A stretch of DNA of 32,000 nucleotides from Patescibacteria group bacterium. Lineage in GTDB: Bacteria > Patescibacteriota > Gracilibacteria > BD1-5 > UBA2023. The stretch covers positions 228,078 through 260,077 of the forward strand of contig JBAQBR010000001.1 of assembly GCA_049293675.1 (NCBI GenBank), written 5' to 3'. The position numbers were made by a program, and so were the translations under genes. The notes under the pieces are model-generated. The model ran no database searches. It worked only from the letters and a program-made list of their open reading frames with translations, and had not been told where the DNA came from. Of this stretch, positions 9,525 through 21,816 are shown piece after piece. Numbering within the stretch: position 1 is the stretch's first letter; each line of letters starts with the position of its first letter.

Positions 9525-9863
9525 TTATTCAGCGATAGCACCAGTGAGGTCAATTGTGATTCCAGTGTTAGTAGAGCCAGTATTGGTTGCACCTGATTGT
9601 GAGAGCTTCTGTTCAAGAGCCTCTGTGATATCATCGAGTTCACCCTGAGTAACTGTATCAGATACAGGAGATACGATATCATGAGGGAAAAGTCCACGAA
9701 CTGCAACGAGTCCAGACTGGATAAGAAAACCGAGGGCCATAAGAAGAACTGTCACAACAACAATAACAACTATATTGTACATCATGTATTTTTTGGTCTC
9801 ATTGGGAGTAGGCCATACAACATGCTCGAGTTCTGCTTGCGCATCACGAAGGAATTTGAACAT
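9525..9863 (-). CDS. secE: preprotein translocase subunit SecE with an extended C-terminal tail
   Basis: ELEHVVWPTPNETKKY followed by one TM helix (IVVIVVVTVLLMALGFLIQ). Conserved position immediately upstream of nusG. About 50 extra C-terminal residues. Confidence 0.85.
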   Translation of the reverse strand: MFKFLRDAQAELEHVVWPTPNETKKYMMYNIVVIVVVTVLLMALGFLIQSGLVAVRGLFPHDIVSPVSDTVTQGELDDITEALEQKLSQSGATNTGSTNTGITIDLTGAIAE

Positions 9864-9930
9864 AAAAGGAAAAGATAAGGTTTTACGAACGGAATTATAT
9901 GAAAAAAATGGAGAGAGTCAAAGCATTTTA

Positions 9931-9950
9931 AAATCCCCTAATGGGGACTT
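9931..9950 (-). terminator. second (back-up) terminator hairpin downstream of the giant gene
   Basis: TCCCC-taat-GGGGA. On the minus strand it is followed by ATTTTAAAAT. Confidence 0.45.
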
Positions 9951-9992
9951 AATGTTGGAGTGATTATAGCGAAAGATTGTGAAAGTCAATAT

Positions 9993-10017
9993 AAAATCCC
10001 GATTGCTCGGGATTTTA
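9993..10017. terminator. rho-independent terminator immediately after the giant gene
   Basis: AAAATCCCGattgcTCGGGATTTT, a symmetric hairpin with flanking A and T runs. It begins 3 nt after the stop codon at 10020-10022. Confidence 0.8.
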
Positions 10018-10019
10018 TA

Positions 10020-13000
10020 CTATTCACCAGATACAGTAGAGACCTCAGAGACAACCTCAGTTGTAACTTCTGTTGTTGGTTCTGTTGGAGCAACTTCTGT
10101 AACTATAGATTCTATTAAAGCTTCTGGAGCTGTAGACTCTACAGGGTTTGTATCTGAGACTACTTCTATAGAGATATCTTCTGGAAGAGCCTCTTCTGGA
10201 ATTACTTCAGTTGTGATTTCTTCTTCAGGAGTTTCTTCTAGAGTTGATCCTGTTGTCTCTTCAGCTATTTCTTCTTCTACAAGTCCTACAGGAAGTGATT
10301 CTTCTGGAGATTCTTCCGTTACAATAGCAATTACTTCTGAAACTGATTCGATTATAGTTGACTCTACTGGAGCAAGTTCACCTGAAGCTGCTGTTGACGA
10401 GGTAACACTTGATCCTGTGACCATGAGTGCTATCCAGTCGAATCGTGTATCAGAAGATACGTTGTTCTGTGTCTCGATAGTGAATCCTGTGACACCCTTG
10501 TCTGTGACTCTATACGTGACGAATGCATCTGCACTCACCGTAATGGCTGGGATAGTTGCATATGGTCGAGCGAAGTCAATGCGTACGGAGTTGGCACCCG
10601 CGAGGATGACAGCAGTACCGGCCATATCAGCATCTTCGAATACTACACGTTCTTCGAATACTACATCAGACTGGAATGTTACAGACTTCACGAATGTGAC
10701 TATCTCATTAAACACTGTCTCCATCTGTACGAAGAGCTTTTCAAGAGTCCTGATAAACGCTGAAAGGATACCAGTATCATCAGATGACTCTGTAACTGAC
10801 TCTGTCGGTACACTCGATTCAAGGGTACCTACTCGTCCTAAGAGAGAAAAGAGAGAGCCTGAGAATACATCCACAGTTCATGAGAGTGACTGTATCTCTG
10901 ATTGCACTCCACCGAGAGTTGTTATCATAGCGCCAAGGCTTGATGTAAGGGTCTCGATATCTGTAAGGAGATTGGCTACATCTGATTCGCCTGTTCCGGT
11001 TTTTGGAGATAGAGTATCTATCTTCGCGAGTGACTTCTGAACCATATATGAGAATCTGTCGAGAACTTGCGAGCCTGAAGCGTTCATGAGAATATTCTGG
11101 TAGTCTGACTCATCTATACCATCATAATATGTATTCTCGACGAATACTATAACCGTTCACTCTGACTCACCTGAGAGTCCTGTAAGTGCCTTACCAATAA
11201 CTCGTCCTGCCTCAGTGGCCCGCATACCAATACCAGGAGTACTGGAAGTCGTGATATAGTCACCAGCTACGATATCACCATTGGAATTATCTACCTTGAC
11301 TGGCACACGTCCAGCAAGCCCAACGATAACTGGTCTGCCAGTTCCATCTGTATCACCGATAACCATTCCTGGTTTTGTCGATATGATACCGAGACTCTTG
11401 TTGTCATATGCACGGGTAGTCTTGGCAACCTGCGATATACCGTTTCCAGCAAGTGCAACGATATGACCTTCACTGAGTGTTGCATCATCTGTATAGTAGA
11501 CTTCTGCGAGATCGGCACCACGGATTTTGTATGCTTCGAGCTTACTACCTGCAAGGACTGTGAGATTGGCAGCAGTGATAGGTGCCCAGCGAAGTTGCAC
11601 TGTACCAGCAGTAGTTGCTGTGATTGTACCTTGGATTTTTACATTGAATGACGTGGCAGAAGCATTGATGATAGTATTCTGCATGAGAGTTGGTACATTG
11701 TCACAGTCAGTCGTACGTACTTGTGGAAAAGCTGTACCAATAGGCTCAATACCAGACATAGTCACATCACATGTCCAACCAGCAGCACCGAGGATATCGG
11801 CCTTCCAGTCTGGCGTGGCACTATTGTTATTGAGTACATTGAGATCGATATCGAATACCCAGGTCTCACCTGCATTGACTGAGAATGCGAGTTGATCATC
11901 ATTCTGTATAGCAATAGCATTAACCGTCTCAGTTGTAGACTTGGTAATCATCTGAACCATCTCCCCATCCTGATCCCCTATCCATTTCCATGCAGTACCA
12001 TTCCAGATAGCCTGACGAGACTGTCATGCCTCTACTCGCTCACCGAGCATAGTAAATCCGACAGTACCAATACTATTGATATAGACGATGCGTCCTGCTA
12101 CTGTGCTCGTTGGAGTTGGTAGAGTAAGTGTCTGATTCGCAGTTGTCTGGGTGATATTGAACGCCGTCTTGATATCAACTGTTGTTGCGGCTGTTCCGAT
12201 AGCACCACCAGCTGCGAGGTTGGCAACAATCATAGATTCAAAAAGAGTTGAACCAGCGTTATGGAGTGTCGCGAGAGATGCACCAGTTCCGAGAGAAAGT
12301 GAACCATTGGCACTGATAGCAGAAAGAGTTGTTCCTGTACTATTTTCCCAACGAGTAAGGTGTCCAGATTGTCCTGCAGCTCCACGTACCATGAGTGCAA
12401 CCTTGGTTGCTTGTTGATTCGGTATGAGTACACCATAGTCATCCTGGAGTCCATATGCGACAGGAGCATAGTCGATATTGGCCTGACGATTCCCCACAAG
12501 TTGGAGTCCCCACCAAGATGTAAGTGCTGACTGATTGTTGACAATAGGTATGAGAGAGAGGTCGAGACCAAGGAGATAGCGAGAAGATTGAAGTGTCCCA
12601 GCAACATCGAGAAGTTGTGCTGGTGTGGCTGTTCCGATTCCAAGTCGACCAGTTGCTGCATCATAGAACATACCACCAGTCTGAGTGAGTCCACCTGTAG
12701 GGGAACCGAATACAAGTTGTCCACTCGTGAATCCTGATAGCATACCACCTGTGAGTGTTCCAATACCTACATTGTTCCCTACACGAGTGAGACCAGTTCC
12801 GAATGTGAGGACACTTTCCTTGGAGTTAAAAGTATTCCAATCAGTAGATGAGAGAAAACCATCGGTTGTTGTATTTGCTTGATTGATGCCAAAAATTCCT
12901 GTAGTACCACTATACGTAAGTGGTCATGTGACACTGAGTGCTGAACGAGCACGAGCATCAGTGAAGTAGAGGTTACTTACACCTTCAGTGAGATTGTCTG

Positions 13001-14789
13001 TATCTTTAGCTCAGAATGCTGTATCAAAACGTGCTTGAGTATAGTAGAGGTTGGTTCCTTCAGTAAGATCTGTAGTTGTTTTGAGTCCAAAAGCAGAGTC
13101 GAATCGTGTAGTTGTGTAATAGAGGTTGGTACCTTCTGCTACATCTGTTGTGGTTTTTGTTGCGAGTCTTGTATCGAAGTCAGTATTGGCACGAGCTGTA
13201 GTATAGTAGAGATTAGTACCTTCTGTGAGATTAGTTGTAGAACGTGCTGCAAAGTCTGTATTGAATCGTGTAGTTGTGTAATAGAGATTGGTACCTTCTG
13301 TTACATCTGTTGTTGTGCCATTCCATCCGAAGAGACCAGTAGTATTGTTGTAAGTAATACCACTTCCTGCTGAGAGGGATGTAAGGTTAATCTTGTTATT
13401 GAATGTATTCCAATCAATTGCAGAGAGAGCACCTGTTGTTGTTGAGGATGCGAGTGCGAGAGAGAGTTGCTGTCCTACGAGAGAGAGACCATTGGTTGTT
13501 GCGAGAGTAAGAGCATCATGAGAAGCTCCAACAAGAGTTGCGAGAGTTCCTGAGAGAGTTGTGATGTCTCCAATTGCTGTAGTGAGGTTTGAATTGGTAC
13601 TAGCAAGGTTACCAGAGAGTGTGAGGAGATTTGAGTTGGTTGTTGAGAGAAGACCAGAAAGAGTAGTAATGTTGGAAGTATTGGTTGCAATGTTAGCTGT
13701 ATTCCCCGCTACAACTCCAGAGAGTGAAGTGAGGTTAGTTCAGAGAGTTCCTACTGTTGAAGTGAGGGTGACAAGGTTACCAGAGAGTGTGAGGAGATTT
13801 GAGTTGGTTGAAGCAAGTCCTCCAGAGAGAGTTGAGATATCTGAGAAAAGTGTAGAGATATCAGTAGTAACTCCAGAAAGTGAGCTATTAATGGTAGCAA
13901 TAGTTCCTGAGAGTGCGTTCTGTGCACGAGCATCAGTGAAGTAGAGGTTAGTGATTCATTCTGACACTCCATCTGTCGTCACAGAGAGGACAGCAGAGAC
14001 AATAGAGAGAACTCCACCTGAGAGTGAGAGTCCTGCACCAACACCTACACTATTCACACTTCCAGATCCATCACGACCAAGTATCTCTATAGGAGTACCA
14101 ATTCCACCATTGAGCGTGATAGTATCTATCTGAGCAGATTGAGCAATAAAATCAGAGAGTATTGTTGTACCACTTACAGTGAGGCTTCCAGAGATAGTCT
14201 GGTTCCCTGCTATGAGAGAATTCCCTGAGACAGATTGGTCTCCAGAGATGATGCCATTGTTGACAAGAGCAGAATTCGAAGAAGATGAGACATATCCACC
14301 GATATTTGCAAATGCTGTACCATTCGGTGTAATAAGTGGTGCAGTACTAAACCCACTCGTCGGTATCTGGGCAACTGGGACAAGAGGAGCAGAATTGAAT
14401 TCCGTTTCTTGCTCAGTGGTATTTGTATTCTTCGTTGGTTTTTTTGGAAATATCCAAGATCCATCACTTACCTGATATGTTCATGCATTGATAGCATAGA
14501 CACTTGGCTTTGCCACAAGAGCTGCGCTTAGCATAATATTCTTCTCAGTTACACGCGTTCCAAGCCATGAGTCATCGATAGTAGGATTGGTCTGGATATA
14601 GACATATTCCTGCTCAGTAGGTTTAAGTACTCAGATACCTCGTGCGGACGTTCAGAGTATTCCCACTTGCTGAGCAAGCATGAGGAATATGAGAAAAAGC
14701 GACAATGGCCGATAATGAGTCGGATGTAGAGTACTGCGTGGAACAGTCGCTTGTGATAGGTGAAAGTGTTTTTGTCTGTGTATTGACAT
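10020..14789 (-). CDS. giant (1589 aa) membrane-anchored fibrous surface protein with tail-fibre-like repeats
   Basis: I checked codon by codon that the minus frame is free of TAA/TAG from 14807 to 10023. 10 in-frame TGAs (10878, 11157, 12024, 12924, 13011, 13740, 13956, 14481, 14631, 14652) join track ORFs 10020..10874, 10878..11087, 11157..11960 and 12024..12743 to an ATG-poor 2-kb N-terminal part. The N-terminus has a hydrophobic anchor (LSLFLIFLMLAQQVGILG). The start could alternatively be ATG at 14681 or 14534. Confidence 0.8.
12940..13985 (-). repeat. in-frame coding tandem repeats inside the giant gene
   Basis: Six copies of T(T/D)xx(T/A)EGxxNLY(Y/F)Txx(R)(F/A), with DNA cores gtagaggtt or atagag(g/a)tt near 12966, 13044, 13119, 13206, 13281 and 13941. 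There is also an (S/T)xxSNLxTLSG(N/G)L array at 13480-13935. It includes a 30-nt exact duplicate, accagagagtgtgaggagatttgagttggt, at about 13611 and 13779. Confidence 0.85.
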
Positions 14790-14910
14790 AGAACCTGATA
14801 TTAGTAATTACCCTTTTAGGCTATCACGTCAATCCACATAAAACAAAAAAAGCAACATATTTCGAAGGAAAAATACATTGACTTATATATATACGGTACT
14901 ATGAATTATT

Positions 14911-15168
14911 TTACTGAACTATCTCTGTGAATCTCTGAACTTGTTTTCAAACATGCTCAACAATATCATACCAAACTGATAATGGTCGTGTGACAAGCGC
15001 ATATCCATGTGCCCAACTCTCAGGTGGAGCATCATAAAGTGGTCGATACACAACCATATCTTCGTGTGTCTCAGAGTGAACAGCAATGTCAATAACCTCA
15101 TACGTGTGAAGTTCTGTTCCATCGGATTTGTAGTGGCGCCAATGGCTACCAGGAGTAGGTTTTTGCAT
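14911..15168 (-). CDS. DUF1653-family small protein
   Basis: HWRHYKSDGTELHTYEVIDIAVHSETHEDMVVYRPLY matches the DUF1653 pattern. The track stop at 14947-14949 is TGA, and read-through adds 12 residues (G plus KQVQRFTEIVQ) before TAA at 14911-14913. Confidence 0.7.
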
Positions 15169-20481: not shown

Positions 20482-20862
20482 TTACTTAACTTCAACTGTA
20501 GCACCAGCCTCAGAGAGTTGAGTCTTGATCTTTTCAGCTTCATCCTTCTTAACACCCTTCTTGATGTCACCACCATTGTCAGCGAGAGCCTTAGCCTCAG
20601 CAAGACCGAGACCAGTAATCTCACGGATAACCTTGATCACTGCAATCTTTTGAGCACCAGCAGAAGTCATAACAACATCGAATGATGTCTTTTCCTCGTC
20701 AGCAGCACCACCAGCAGCACCACCAGCCATAACAGCAACTGGAGCAGCAGCAGAAACTCCGAACTTCTCCTCCATAGCAGAGACGAGGTCAGCGAGTTCT
20801 ACGATAGTAAGAGTTTCAACGAGATCCATGATCTGTTGTGCGTTCTTTGAGAGATCAGCCAT
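20482..20862 (-). CDS. rplL: 50S ribosomal protein L7/L12
   Basis: [36 protein letters not shown], an Ala/Gly hinge, and [24 protein letters not shown]. Start set at ATG 20862 rather than the upstream Met in the track. No TGA codons. Confidence 0.95.
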
Positions 20863-20950
20863 AATAAAAATAGATAGAAAATAAATATACTTGATCGAGA
20901 TTTTCACCTCGCACCTATCCCGATATACGGGACAGGATGTGAGACGAAAA

Positions 20951-21607
20951 TTATTCAGCCTTTGGTTCTTCTGTAGGAGTCTCTACCGCAGTTTCTGCTA
21001 CTGGAGCTTCCACTGGAGCCTCAGGAGCAACTTCTGCTACTGGAGCTGGAGCTTCAGCCTTGGCAGGAGCAGCACCAACAAGATCACCAACCTTTGTAAC
21101 ACCCTTTGCTGTGATATCCTTCCCTGCAGCATCGAAGAATCGTGCAAGACCAGAGAGTGGAGACATCATAGAACCGAGGAGTTTCGCGAGGAGTACTTCA
21201 CGAGATGGGAGTGTAGCGAGTTTCTTCGTCTCAGCACCATCCATAAGACGACCTTCCATGTAACCAGCAACGAATGTGAGCTTCTGCTCTTTTTTCCATT
21301 CGTTTGCATACTTGTTAGCAACTCCGAGTGGAGCAATTGCATCACCCTTAGCGATAACGAGCGCAACCTGACCAGGAAGAGTATTGATATCAACCTCTAC
21401 ACCGTAGACATTCTTGAACGCGATACGGATAAGAGTCTTCTTAGCAGTGAGAAATATTGCATTCTGTGCGCGGAGATCTCGCTTGAGAGCAGATACCTCG
21501 AGAACGGTAACCTTTGTATTTGAAGTAAAACCAACACTTGTAGCCTCTTTGAGGTGAGCCTCGAGGACCGCAAGTTGTTCTACTTTCTTTGCCTTTGATA
21601 CAGCCAT
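20951..21607 (-). CDS. rplJ: 50S ribosomal protein L10 with an Ala/Pro/Glu-rich C-terminal extension
   Basis: Intact 218-aa ORF directly upstream of rplL. The L10-like core ends at about ...[16 protein letters not shown]. The extra tail is [39 protein letters not shown]. No TGA codons. Confidence 0.9.
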
Positions 21608-21816
21608 ATAATAAGATAATTAAGAGGTAATCTTCTGACGACATGAAGCGAAAAAAAATCGCGCATATCGCACGAACAGTTGAGAGTTTTAGTTTTTGGT
21701 TCTTGGTTATCAGTTGTTTCCAACTAATACCCAATACCTAATGCCTAATAACTATACTGTCCATCTCGGTAGGCTATTTTTAGTCCAAATAGGAACCTAC
21801 GGTCTGCGATAGAAGT
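21608..21816 (-). promoter_or_regulatory. long structured 5' leader of rplJ (candidate L10 leader)
   Basis: About 209 nt lie between the consensus promoter and the rplJ ATG. The minus-sense RNA contains CGCAGACCGTAGGTTCC and the 9-bp stem TATTAGTTG-GAAA-CAACTGATA with a GNRA loop. Assignment to the L10-leader family rests on position plus weak recollection of the motif, not on a covariance-model hit. Confidence 0.4.
21684..21751. repeat. two opposed 7-nt periodic tracts in the rplJ leader
   Basis: (RGTTNTT)x5 at 21684-21718 and (CYAATRC)x4 at 21724-21751. The two tracts are partly complementary and flank the GAAA-capped stem. Confidence 0.7.

Follow-up and report, generated by a model that had tools for sequence, protein, structure and literature searches.

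A phage-tail-fibre-like protein encoded among housekeeping genes in a Gracilibacteria genome as a probable surface attachment fibre

Introduction

A 1589-residue protein built from modules of the phage tail-fibre type is encoded among housekeeping genes of a bacterium that is probably tiny and host-dependent. This raises the question of whether the gene serves the cell or a phage, and of what such a fibre would do at the surface of its producer. An initial annotation of the window (the whole stretch of 32,000 nucleotides analysed here, whose position numbers are used throughout) had called the gene an orphan and proposed it as a host-attachment fibre. Herein, its reading frame, genomic setting, modular architecture and relatives are described, and the possible functions are weighed.

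Reading frame and genetic code

The initial annotation described one uninterrupted frame under genetic code 25, in which TGA encodes glycine. This was correct, and the gene lies on the minus strand, a point that had been left unstated:

10020..14789, minus strand: complete fibre coding sequence, 1589 aa plus TAG stop, genetic code 25

The open reading frame (4770 nt) runs from an ATG at 14789 to a TAG at 10020-10022, has zero internal TAA or TAG codons, and is intact only when TGA is a sense codon; under table 11 it falls into at least six pieces, owing to ten in-frame TGA codons. Sequence comparison supports the reading of TGA as glycine, since these codons lie mostly on glycine columns of the homologue alignment. 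For instance, position 1211 is glycine in 48 of 54 homologues, and position 922 is occupied by 20 G and five 'W', the latter representing TGA mistranslated elsewhere. Code 25 is likewise needed by all neighbouring genes.

The gene is also preserved in other assemblies. An independent assembly is 100% identical to it across 3.6 kb, and a strain variant (L169) keeps the frame with a 27-nt in-frame insertion in the region encoding the acidic tail. Because the changes in this variant are mostly synonymous and its indel is in frame, the gene appears to be under purifying selection. Together with full-length homologues and syntenic orthologues, these data uphold the description of one gene rather than several.

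The gene contains 155-156 glycine codons, and not the roughly 190 estimated initially, of which ten are TGA; in the PBP gene the fraction is 19 of 59, in line with the third stated previously. This low usage had been taken to suggest either high expression or a foreign origin. The first suggestion is compatible with the codon counts, which fit fairly high expression; the second does not follow from them, because TGA use is equally low in several housekeeping neighbours and ribosomal protein genes contain no TGA at all.

Genomic locus

Pfam searches confirmed the housekeeping setting and the absence of phage genes that had been noted at the outset. Downstream, on the same strand, lie secE and nusG, and on the upstream side DUF1653 and alaS. 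Elsewhere the window encodes greA, rlmN, a TPR protein, an M3 peptidase and the PBP. No capsid, terminase, portal, integrase or tail gene was found by Pfam within the 32 kb. The two tandem terminators reported after the gene were recovered as two hairpins followed by U-runs, beyond which a predicted promoter opens the next transcription unit:

9987..10022, minus strand: terminator hairpin 1, 16-bp stem including the stop codon, then a U-run; dG -20.2 kcal/mol, z = -8.2 (0 of 200 shuffles equally stable)
9931..9950, minus strand: terminator hairpin 2, then UUUU; dG -11.1 kcal/mol, z = -2.8
9894..9921, minus strand: sigma-70-like secE promoter, TTGACT-16-TATAAT, 11 of 12 matches

Upstream of the fibre gene, the motif search returned no convincing promoter. 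In the relatives L177 and L178 the same locus lacks the gene, and the L178 spacer carries a hairpin homologous to terminator 2. Since a related genome has this empty site, the fibre gene is regarded as an accessory insertion. In tetranucleotide composition the gene stands apart from the rest of the window, a signal confounded by amino-acid bias.

Modular architecture of the fibre

All motifs listed in the initial annotation are present and could be mapped. The N-terminal half comprises the following features:

14643..14789, minus strand: leader (aa 1-49) with a basic/His-rich N-region, the hydrophobic segment LSLFLIFLMLAQQVGILG and a small-residue 'TSA' motif
14265..14627, minus strand: N-terminal domain (aa 55-175), YVYIQTNPxIDDSWxG ... 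SDGSWIFPKK ... FNSAP ... TPNGT
13965..14264, minus strand: Gly/Ser/Asn-rich beta-type region (aa 176-275) containing NGIISGDQSVSGNSLIAGNQTISGSLTVSG, with weak PHROG matches
13470..13904, minus strand: coiled-coil stalk (aa 296-440), about 20 uninterrupted heptads of the xxLxTLS type
12795..13469, minus strand: repeat region (aa 441-665), DWNTFNxK motifs flanking five TEG(T/VS)NLY(Y/F)T units of about 25-29 aa each

The leader contains the highest Kyte-Doolittle 19-residue window of the protein (1.89 at aa 29) and, from its sequence, would be a Sec signal peptide or else a signal anchor. This layout, HHRP-LALFLLFVILCQQLGILG-TSA, recurs in the syntenic orthologue P0001 (locus L002); the leader of L020 is much shorter and different, and the N-terminus of L011 was taken from a stop-to-stop ORF with an undefined start. 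The domain that follows, presumed to be the cell-proximal attachment part, matched no Pfam or NCBIfam family and was seen only in the close Gracilibacteria relatives L020, L011, P0001 and P0183-P0185.

NGIISG...TVSG lies at aa 178-207 of the beta-type region. The periodicity of the stalk is pronounced, with a power of 5.0 at 3.5 residues against at most 0.6 at other periods, and weak matches to trimeric coiled coils were obtained (P22 gp26, UspA1 and the tail needle family phrog_1219). In the repeat region, DWNTFNxK occurs at aa 459-466 and 650-657, and EGTNLYYT in four units (aa 498, 523, 552 and 577); two degenerate units lie at aa 277 and 602. NLYFTDARA is present at aa 281-289 and 606-614, as stated earlier; however, the second unit follows the TEGTNLYYT units, so the supposed bracket spans more than the coiled coil. 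At the nucleotide level the region contains an 87-nt tandem repeat of 2.7 copies, which appear old because only 67% of positions match between them. The region matches the 'structural protein' family phrog_697 (E = 1.1e-17), and cyanophage structural proteins (156 records) at 37-57% identity.

Four modules follow, the last with a putative cleavage site:

12261..12692, minus strand: module A (aa 700-843), starting with FYDAATGRLGIGTATPAQLLDVAG; boundaries from homologue end-points
11970..12257, minus strand: module B (aa 845-940), small beta domain
11529..11969, minus strand: module C (aa 941-1087), predicted TNF-like/C1q-like jelly-roll beta-sandwich
11019..11522, minus strand: module D (aa 1090-1257), putative Peptidase_G2-type intramolecular chaperone
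11502-11516, minus strand: putative autocleavage site Ala1092/Asp1093 within ADLAE, from alignment to phi29 gp12

The motif FYDAATGRLGIG... lies at aa 708-731. Module A was modelled at pLDDT below 50 and gave no fold match in the structure search. Module B (aa 852-921 at pLDDT ~95), of which the homologue P0153 has three to four tandem copies, gave no significant one. Module C, modelled at pLDDT 80-95 and with two invariant cysteines (1007 and 1029), resembled the TNF-like lectins PLTL (9ib6) and BC2L-C (2wq4/6tid) at Foldseek probability 1.0 and a target-normalised TM of 0.5-0.58, with only ~8-14% identity. 4-1BBL and the phi812 spike knob were also matched, as were knobs at the C-terminal ends of phage tail fibres, with E values as low as 3e-10. 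Module C is a candidate glycan-binding knob.

The segment ADLAEVYY...GRVPVKV, beginning with ADLAEVYY at aa 1092-1099, had been likened to fibre-tip domains. It is better described as part of a putative chaperone and autocleavage module, on the evidence of PF11962, an alignment with gp12 and a fold match. The window protein itself scores 23.1-23.7 bits against PF11962, below the cut-off of 25; within the family, 19 of 30 members match (best E = 1.7e-7). The family profile aligns with phi29 gp12 at S691/D692-FAE, the Asp and Glu of the motif are invariant, and the predicted fold agrees with preneck appendage barrels at 30-34% identity and an rmsd of 3.0-3.8 Å. Residue 691 is the end of mature gp12 (PMC6542822), and the mature virion is devoid of the gp12 chaperone (PMC9863714). 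The same cleavage motif is found in 80 of 80 phage homologues. In all of these the G2 module is terminal (5-53 aa after the core), whereas it is internal in 78 of 78 cellular homologues (120-787 aa) and in the window fibre (374 aa). Because the module is internal here, its role may differ from that in phages, for example as an uncleaved trimerisation clamp. With the repeat, knob and G2 matches, the attribution of tail-fibre-type modules made at the outset is borne out.

Beyond module D, three C-terminal features were delimited:

10740..11006, minus strand: second coiled coil (aa 1262-1350), periodicity 3.5-3.6 residues, power 1.9-2.2
10419..10607, minus strand: module E (aa 1395-1457), H-type-lectin-like, within a conserved family block from about aa 1340
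10023..10412, minus strand: acidic tail (aa 1460-1589), Glu/Thr/Val/Pro-rich, 32 Glu in 130 residues

The second coiled coil weakly matches that of reovirus sigma-1. Module E is H-type-lectin-like at the level of family sequences: the window copy reaches 17.8 bits against PF09458, below the cut-off of 24, 11 of 16 family members match (best E = 1.7e-7), and the homologues P0175 and P0181 carry precomputed PF09458 matches. In the PDB, the family profile is closest to Helix pomatia agglutinin (E = 0.013). The single 'globular domain' reported initially resolves into two predicted ones, the jelly-roll of module C and the H-type-lectin-like module E. The length of the acidic tail varies between strains. 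No LPXTG, SLH or lipobox motif and no Pfam anchoring match was seen, so that the fibre would lack a known anchor should its leader be a cleaved signal peptide. Nor did any part of the fibre match an enzymatic or toxin domain.

Distribution and divergence of homologues

The protein is far from an orphan, as 621 and 63 protein matches were retrieved. The repeat module has hundreds of relatives and is common to more than 100 of the 120 homologues listed; at least 496 genome stretches contain the tip block (modules C and D), and almost all of them come from CPR/Patescibacteria. Judged from these matches, the family is large, undescribed and spread across CPR lineages. Many CPR proteins with the repeat module carry S74 domains, and the homologue P0002 has been named 'trimeric autotransporter adhesin' by JGI.

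Full-length homologues of ~40% identity occur in other Gracilibacteria, and the survey for syntenic homologues proposed initially yielded orthologues maintained in three genomes, with lengths of 1371, 1589 and at least 2092 aa. L011 is collinear with aa 292-1574, and P0001 with the N-terminal 843 aa, its tip modules being replaced. In two relatives the neighbours at the locus are 84-94% identical and the fibre 45-53%, with modules swapped. By sequence, the fibre thus appears to diversify by module exchange far faster than its neighbours, as would be expected of a host-range determinant.

Comparison with known systems

The closest known system is that of the mosaic adhesive trimer (MAT) fibres of Bdellovibrio bacteriovorus, which are trimeric and displayed at the cell surface for prey recognition (Caulton et al., 2024, PMC10769870). 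Their tips are swappable, and some of these are TNF-like lectins best matched by BC2L-C 2WQ4 (PMC10769870). Both are cell-encoded kin of phage tail fibres of at least 1000 aa, in which an N-terminal export signal and a lineage-conserved N-domain precede a long fibre and swappable C-terminal tips, including a TNF-like lectin matching 2WQ4. In both groups, many members end in an autoproteolytic chaperone, and MATs serve a bacterium that itself lives on other bacteria. Several differences were also found. Similarity to the window N-domain was detected only within a narrow Gracilibacteria clade, and the stalk consists of an alpha-helical coiled coil and TEGTNLYYT repeats instead of a beta-helix/beta-prism. 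The chaperone is of the G2 type (Asp/Glu, phi29 gp12-like) and internal, followed by a coiled coil and the H-type-lectin-like domain, whereas that of MATs is S74 (Ser/Lys). Furthermore, the organism uses code 25 and, as a CPR bacterium, is presumably monoderm.

The pre-neck appendage (tailspike) protein gp12 of Bacillus phage phi29, with its C-terminal autochaperone (PF11962 Peptidase_G2; PDB 3GQ7, 3GQH, 6QZ9), shares with module D the aligned site (S691/D692-F-A-E and A1092/D1093-L-A-E), the invariant Asp/Glu and the predicted barrel fold. Unlike the window fibre, gp12 belongs to the virion and has an enzyme body of beta-helix fold, and its chaperone, formed by the last 163 residues, is discarded; the window fibre has no such enzyme domain, and its internal module scores just below the Pfam threshold. 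The giant 'structural proteins' of T4-like cyanophages (S-RIM14, S-M1, P-RSM6, S-WAM1), encoded in phage genomes, have only the TEG(T)NLY(Y/F)T module in common with it. The lectins provide further parallels, namely the TNF-like ones (Burkholderia BC2L-C N-domain, Photorhabdus PLTL) through the fold of module C and the H-type ones through the family-level signature of module E.

Trimeric autotransporter adhesins (YadA, UspA1) likewise have a long trimeric coiled-coil stalk. However, the C-terminal YadA-type beta-barrel anchor is lacking in the window fibre (no Pfam match), and the polarity is reversed, the export signal and the presumed attachment both being N-terminal and the tip C-terminal. 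The organism, as a CPR bacterium, is probably devoid of an outer membrane.

Proposed function and alternatives

Altogether, the product of the gene is probably a homotrimeric surface fibre resembling those of phage tails, either secreted or tethered to the membrane, which most likely recognises other cells and attaches to them via surface glycans. The host-attachment reading proposed initially therefore remains the best available one. TNF-like lectins, Helix pomatia agglutinin, gp12, gp26 and UspA1, the relatives of the coiled coils and of modules C, D and E, are all trimers. In the proposed mechanism, the N-terminal hydrophobic segment would direct the chain through Sec, and the N-domain would hold the fibre at the producer surface. 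Module D would nucleate trimerisation from the C-terminal side, as in phi29 gp12, and zip up the beta modules, the repeat region and the ~20-heptad coiled coil. Given the conserved A-D-L-A-E motif, it may then cut the chain at Ala1092/Asp1093, leaving a stalk tipped by the jelly-roll knob of module C. Speculatively, the C-terminal fragment (G2 barrel, coiled coil, module E and acidic tail) would then be either released or kept as a second lectin-bearing unit.

A general envelope fibre, forming a nap or associated with an S-layer and serving spacing, protection, biofilm formation or as a phage decoy, is rather unlikely. Here, the lectin-like domains would bind the producer's own wall polymers, and the H-type-lectin end with the tail could act as anchor, with the N-terminus distal. 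A long Thr/Ser/Gly/Asn-rich protein with a coiled coil and an acidic tail would suit such a role, as would an N-terminus with no anchoring motif beyond its hydrophobic segment and a TGA avoidance like that of well-expressed genes, which hints at abundance; the Bacillus exosporium fibre BclA also bears a terminal TNF/C1q-like knob. By contrast, tip replacement, very fast divergence relative to the neighbours and absence of the gene from a close relative fit a determinant of interaction or host range better than an envelope component that is essential, and by analogy with phages and MATs the variable tip would point away from the cell.

A role as a lectin or attack factor that is secreted and processed is less likely still. 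In that case the C-terminal trimer freed by G2 cleavage would be the product and the N-terminal part its scaffold or carrier. The lengths after the G2 core in cellular and phage homologues imply that the region past the putative cleavage site has been systematically elaborated, and at least 14 homologues keep module E behind module D. However, the fibre lacks any recognisable enzymatic or toxin domain, C-terminal extensions differ among homologues, and conservation in the full-length ones covers the N-terminal 1090 aa, which bear a well-formed knob.

A prophage remnant or phage-derived cassette, with no present cellular function or in use by a phage or satellite, is very improbable. Several modules are common to phages, the gene is inserted relative to L178 with an atypical (and confounded) composition, and a Phage_holin_4_2 family gene is next in line to the homologue P0012. 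Against this stand the lack of phage genes across the 32 kb, an intact gene with mostly synonymous strain changes and syntenic orthologues in three genomes, an internal G2 architecture unlike that of all 80 phage homologues, and an export signal atypical of virion fibres. In addition, the ten TGA codons sit at glycine positions, which indicates that the gene evolved within code 25.

The chance of an artefact, either a chimeric ORF from repeat misassembly or a pseudogene open only under table 25, is close to nil: short-read contigs of other runs do break in or beside the gene (L168 starts at 12978; L166 and L172 end nearby) and table-11 gene calls fragment it, but the identical independent assembly, the in-frame variant, the collinearity with P0001 and L011, and the placement of TGA on glycine columns in a neighbourhood that needs code 25 throughout all support a genuine gene.

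Gene integrity and reading in genetic code 25

The initial annotation had described one uninterrupted frame of 4.77 kb at window positions 10020-14789 without stating its strand. The frame was confirmed and lies on the minus strand, where it runs without TAA or TAG from 14807 to 10020, has its first ATG at 14789 and encodes 1589 aa followed by a TAG stop. The plus-strand reading of 10020-14789 was ruled out by nine TAA/TAG stops. Every sequence motif listed for the protein was located in it, but the glycine codons, put at about 190, number 155-156 in our count.

Ten in-frame TGA codons break the gene into six or more pieces under table 11, and public table-11 gene calls for this record and for the Logan re-assembly cut it to 239, 267, 69 and 284 aa. 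Because table-11 callers return four or more fragments, the fibre family is easily missed in code-25 genomes, and its full-length proteins are under-represented in protein databases. The stored gene calls for loci L167 and L168, made with the standard code, also fragment many neighbours (PBP, UvrC, RlmN). In homologue alignments, the TGA positions of the window gene fall mostly on glycine: position 1211 is Gly in 48 of 54 aligned sequences, position 278 is read as 15 Gly and 2 Trp, and position 922 as 20 Gly and 5 'Trp', the latter being the signature of TGA mistranslated as tryptophan. Judged from these alignments, reading TGA as glycine is justified for the fibre gene.

The claim that this is a single gene was borne out by independent assemblies, in which the frame is kept, and by full-length collinear homologues, namely L011 (2154 aa) and L018 (2825 aa), at about 40% identity, together with the syntenic P0001 and L020 proteins. 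One independent Logan assembly (L168) matches window 12978-9401 at 100% identity, and a locus from another run (L170) shows 99.8% identity. A third run (L169; window 10020-11132 compared with L169:1-1759) holds a strain variant at 96.6% identity, in which all 33 substitutions, about 27 of them synonymous, lie within the fibre gene and none in the adjoining 622 nt (spacer, secE and start of nusG). Its sole indel, 27 nt inserted in frame, adds SETQVEEVV to the acidic tail. The pattern speaks for an intact gene under purifying selection and marks it as a local variation hotspot; it also suggests that a diverged allele segment was imported into the variant by recombination.

TGA makes up 6% of the glycine codons in the fibre gene against 20% in 17 other genes pooled (Fisher p = 8e-5), with a gene-to-gene range of 0-40%. 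This scarcity had been attributed to either high expression or a foreign origin. The second explanation is rejected for want of evidence, since values for the M3 peptidase (5%), DsbA (0%), RlmN (10%) and the L10 and L7/L12 genes rplJ and rplL (0 of 26) are comparably low or lower. The rplJ/rplL pair (window 20482-21619) uses no TGA and has GGT in 23 of 26 glycine codons, whereas TGA supplies 30-40% of the glycine codons in PBP, CMP kinase and RsmB; in this genome, TGA-encoded glycine thus appears to become rarer as expected expression rises. The low TGA use of the fibre gene is compatible with good expression. The tetranucleotide composition of the gene is atypical, but this measure is confounded by its Thr/Ser/Gly/Asn-rich repeats. 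A strong local GC skew of +0.33 (plus strand) at window 13001-14000 coincides with the coiled-coil and repeat region and is probably an effect of codon and amino-acid composition, with Thr/Ser/Asn codons on the minus strand.

Modular organization of the fibre protein

Whole-protein searches of Pfam, PDB (phmmer) and NCBIfam gave nothing above thresholds, and the informative searches were exclusively those by segment and at family level. Module boundaries were set from the end-points of homologues.

Segments of the fibre protein (gene at window positions 10020-14789, minus strand), with the basis of assignment where one applies
aa 1-49: basic region, 18-residue hydrophobic segment and 'TSA' motif; Sec signal or signal anchor
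aa 55-175: conserved N-domain, confined to close relatives
aa 176-275: Gly/Ser/Asn-rich region
aa 296-440: about 20 perfect heptads
aa 441-665 (window 12795-13469): repeat module of DWNTFN and TEGTNLYYT units
aa 700-843: module A, no fold assigned (structure model and fold search)
aa 845-940: module B, no fold family assigned (structure model and fold search)
aa 941-1087: module C, TNF-like jelly-roll (structure model and fold search)
aa 1090-1257: module D, G2-type chaperone (Pfam, family profile, fold match and motif)
aa 1262-1350: second heptad segment
aa ~1340-1457: module E, H-type-lectin-like (family-level Pfam and PDB profile matches)
aa 1460-1589: acidic tail (composition)

Two of these segments resemble lectins. 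Module C was modelled at a pLDDT of 80-95 with a predicted jelly-roll beta-sandwich fold, and Foldseek against the PDB returned 9ib6, 2wq4, 6tid and 6a3v with probability 1.0 and target-normalised TM scores of 0.44-0.58. It resembles trimeric TNF-like lectins (PLTL, 9ib6; BC2L-C, 2wq4/6tid), TNF ligands and the knobs of phage spikes and fibres. Module E itself scores 17.8 bits against PF09458 (E = 0.0036), short of the Pfam gathering score of 24 bits. At family level, H_lectin (PF09458) is matched by 11 of 16 members (best 1.7e-7), two homologues carry a precomputed match, and the family profile finds Helix pomatia agglutinin as its best PDB match (E = 0.013). The fibre protein may accordingly be a glycan binder. 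In the structure model of aa 623-921, module A has a pLDDT below 50, and the fold search yielded no match at E <1.

A G2-type chaperone in an internal position

Module D matches PF11962, the Peptidase_G2 family, at 23.1-23.7 bits (E = 4-6e-5), short of the Pfam gathering threshold of 25 bits, and 19 of 30 homologous modules match it at E <=0.01 (best 1.7e-7). The family profile aligns ADLAE with SDFAE of 6qz9 and 3gqh, which corresponds to S691|D692 of gp12, the pre-neck appendage of Bacillus phage phi29. Asp1093 and Glu1096, which we take to be the catalytic pair as in MEROPS G2, are invariant in 30 sequences, and an [A/S]-D-x-A-E motif opens module D in 80/80 viral homologues. The last residue of mature gp12 is 691 (PMC6542822), the chaperone fragment in the crystal structure begins at D692, and the chaperone is missing from the virion (PMC9863714). 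Cleavage of the window protein at A1092|D1093 is putative on this motif alignment. A Foldseek search of BFVD with the model retrieved the 'Preneck appendage protein' A0A8S5VGI4 (34% identity, rmsd 3.0 A, E = 5e-6) and A0A8S5T1T8 (30% identity, rmsd 3.8 A); no solved gp12 chain was among the top PDB fold matches for the module C/D model. The pLDDT of module D is 52-89 per 10-residue block (mostly 65-89), with model residues 218-225 and 286-288 below 50.

The G2 module of gp12 is terminal, and that of the window protein is followed by 374 aa. Across the family, 120-787 aa follow the module D core in cellular proteins (78/78 scorable genomic loci), against 5-53 aa in viral ones (80/80), which indicates that, in the cellular family, a phage-type autochaperone came to lie inside the protein and further modules were added after it. 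A coiled coil and module E make up these additions in at least 14 homologues. If cleavage occurred at A|DLAE, one precursor would give a cell-attached stalk with a TNF-like knob and a coiled-coil/H-type-lectin unit, the latter either released or still docked. Three CPR homologues (P0147, P0148 and P0154) contain two module D copies per protein; such a pair of internal autocleavage modules would fit poorly with the role of a simple terminal chaperone. Module B occurs in 3-4 tandem copies in another homologue, P0153.

Genomic context and variation at the locus

Directly downstream of the fibre gene, Pfam identifies secE and nusG, both on its strand, and upstream of it DUF1653 and alaS, in agreement with the initial view of a fibre embedded among housekeeping genes. 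Other genes of the window include greA, rlmN, a TPR protein, the M3 peptidase, a class A PBP, smpB, rsmB, a dsbA-like gene, tsaD and rplJ/rplL. The asserted lack of nearby phage genes also held among the Pfam-identified genes of the window. Rather than lying in a prophage or a morphogenesis module, the gene has housekeeping neighbours in the window and in the compared loci L001, L002 and L020.

The two tandem terminators proposed for the gene were recovered by folding as hairpins with U-runs 3' of the stop (dG -20.2 and -11.1 kcal/mol); a terminator scan had missed both minus-strand hairpins because the U-run overlaps the stem. After the hairpins comes a sigma-70-like promoter of secE with 11/12 matches. 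The 121-nt spacer that precedes the ATG yielded no convincing sigma-70-type promoter, its TTGACG at 14827-14832 standing without a proper -10 element, so that read-through or co-transcription from alaS-DUF1653 is possible. SecE (window 9525-9863) has a long Thr/Gly/Ser-rich C-terminal extension after its conserved TM helix and is 39-55% identical in relatives whose NusG is 77-94% identical.

The arrangement fibre-secE-nusG-...-rlmN-TPR(-M3) is shared with L002 (Logan SRR14932614) and L020 (Gracilibacteria MAG HEM.3). DUF1653 lies immediately upstream of the fibre gene in L020; in L002, which has no DUF1653 match, an Mrr-type gene separates the fibre gene from an alaS fragment about 1.3 kb upstream. 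Neighbouring proteins of these loci are 84-94% identical to those of the window (NusG 91% and 94%, RlmN 91% and 93%), and the fibre proteins, of 1371 and at least 2092 aa, are 45-53% identical to the window fibre. The L020 stalk has a much expanded coiled coil and repeats. In P0001, the L002 orthologue, modules B-C-D are replaced by a different segment, which shows a sub-threshold Laminin_G_3 match (E = 0.04), a weak ConA-like hint, and no PDB sequence match. The L020 fibre (L020:3273-9581) stops within the H-type-lectin-like domain after '...DTVFD', where the window reads FDW..., with about 600 nt left before secE; this early stop could reflect a truncated allele, a TGG-to-TAG change or a sequencing error.

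A more distant relative (L178/L177; NusG 85%, AlaS 76%) shares its gene order with the window essentially from end to end and has no fibre gene. At this empty site (L178:9266-9913 and L177:3619-4266, compared with window 9863-14911), DUF1653 and secE are separated by about 140 nt, and the spacer already contains hairpin 2 and the secE promoter block. Synteny and the empty site together indicate that the fibre gene is an accessory insertion in a housekeeping locus, or was lost in L178, and that it diversifies by module exchange. Part of the spacer of the relative (TATATAATCAATGTAAC...CCCTTCGGGG) resembles the left and right junctions of the window insertion, a resemblance that could stem from a duplication made by the insertion. 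Among 19 NusG-anchored metagenome loci, none had fibre-like sequence within reach.

Distribution of the family

The protein had been introduced as an orphan tail-fibre-like surface fibre among housekeeping genes. While the setting is upheld and the module identities are refined, 'orphan' is refuted by 621 proteins that match the whole protein and 63 that match its non-repeat C-terminal part. Most of the 621, which are 1100-2500 aa long, have only aa 470-670, the repeat module, in common with it, and many of these repeat-module homologues end in a Peptidase_S74 chaperone. In a genome scan, at least 496 stretches proved to carry the C+D tip block. CPR bacteria (Gracilibacteria, Saccharibacteria, Microgenomates, Paceibacteria, Peribacteria, Dojkabacteria, Gottesman-, Roizman- and Uhrbacteria, and others) account for almost all of the best 80, with a few contigs binned as Bdellovibrionales or Gammaproteobacteria.

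B-C-D is present in L005 (JBILXY010000022.1), L024, L013, L025 and other loci from bins labelled Bdellovibrionales, Bdellovibrio sp., Pseudomonadales and Gammaproteobacteria. It occurs there at no more than 58% identity, in standard-code ORFs of more than 2000 aa and on different scaffolds (YadA-head-like repeats in L005); the L005 'Bdellovibrionales' protein has only B-C-D in common with the window fibre (58%). Either module transfer between bacteria living on other bacteria or mis-binned contigs would account for these cases.

Viral relatives share individual modules. IMG/VR viral contigs have only module D in common with the fibre (37-42% identity). In annotated phage genomes (n = 50,697), the repeat module is confined to 'structural proteins' of T4-like cyanophages of Synechococcus and Prochlorococcus (156 records, 37-57% identity), a strikingly narrow occurrence for a module common in CPR bacteria, and tblastn with the C+D block gave no match in annotated phage genomes. 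Five unannotated genes, each encoding 300-350 aa, lie ahead of the gene for P0012, a homologue of 2276 aa in the standard code (L003), and a Phage_holin_4_2 family gene and a NAGPA-domain gene come after it (L003:16835-18414). This context may be phage-like or lysis-associated, unlike that of the window.

Relation to known fibre systems

The recognisable modules point to an extracellular fibre, homotrimeric and of the phage receptor-binding-protein type, which the cell itself encodes and maintains; its surface location, trimer formation and role in host attachment are presumptive. We rate it as a cell-encoded phage-fibre-like adhesin, a kind already known, with a distinctive family-wide architectural twist. 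A more far-reaching reading, which we regard as rather improbable, is that CPR/Patescibacteria possess a large, previously undescribed family of host-recognition fibres, built from phage fibre modules and similar to the mosaic adhesive trimer (MAT) fibres of Bdellovibrio bacteriovorus. Under that reading, the G2 autochaperone was moved inside the protein, autocleavage would yield two trimeric lectin-bearing products, and the exchange of tip modules at conserved loci would set the host range of the episymbionts. In the literature consulted on Gracilibacteria and Absconditicoccaceae, type IV pili and a few generic adhesin-domain proteins are the only attachment candidates named, and we found no paper linking such fibres to CPR bacteria. 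As a candidate for how these ultra-small bacteria find and hold their hosts, the fibre gene is concrete and testable: it encodes two lectin-type domains, it is hypervariable while its locus is conserved, and one close relative lacks it. The family-wide re-use of a phage autochaperone in a new position poses a clear biochemical question.

By analogy, the closest known system is that of the MAT fibres, and the likeness is functional rather than sequence-based. MAT fibres are trimers displayed on the surface of a predatory bacterium (PMC10769870). They have a signal peptide and a conserved N-domain, their tips are interchangeable and include TNF-like lectins matching 2WQ4, and an autoproteolytic chaperone is often present. 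The window fibre has a TNF-like tip in module C and is presumably a trimer; its own N-terminus is of an export type and carries a conserved N-domain. Tips are replaced between syntenic orthologues, B-C-D sits on a different scaffold in L005, and many repeat-module homologues end in S74. The two systems differ in that the chaperone of the window fibre is of the G2 rather than the S74 type and is internal, its stalk is an alpha-helical coiled coil, and its N-domain appears unrelated to the beta-rich domain of about 130 aa described for MAT fibres. A sequence search with aa 1-275 gave three short matches, all from close relatives and none from Bdellovibrio. Trimeric autotransporter adhesins, in contrast, have a YadA-like C-terminal anchor; the window fibre shows no such Pfam match in the whole protein or its segments, and its C-terminus is instead an acidic low-complexity tail.
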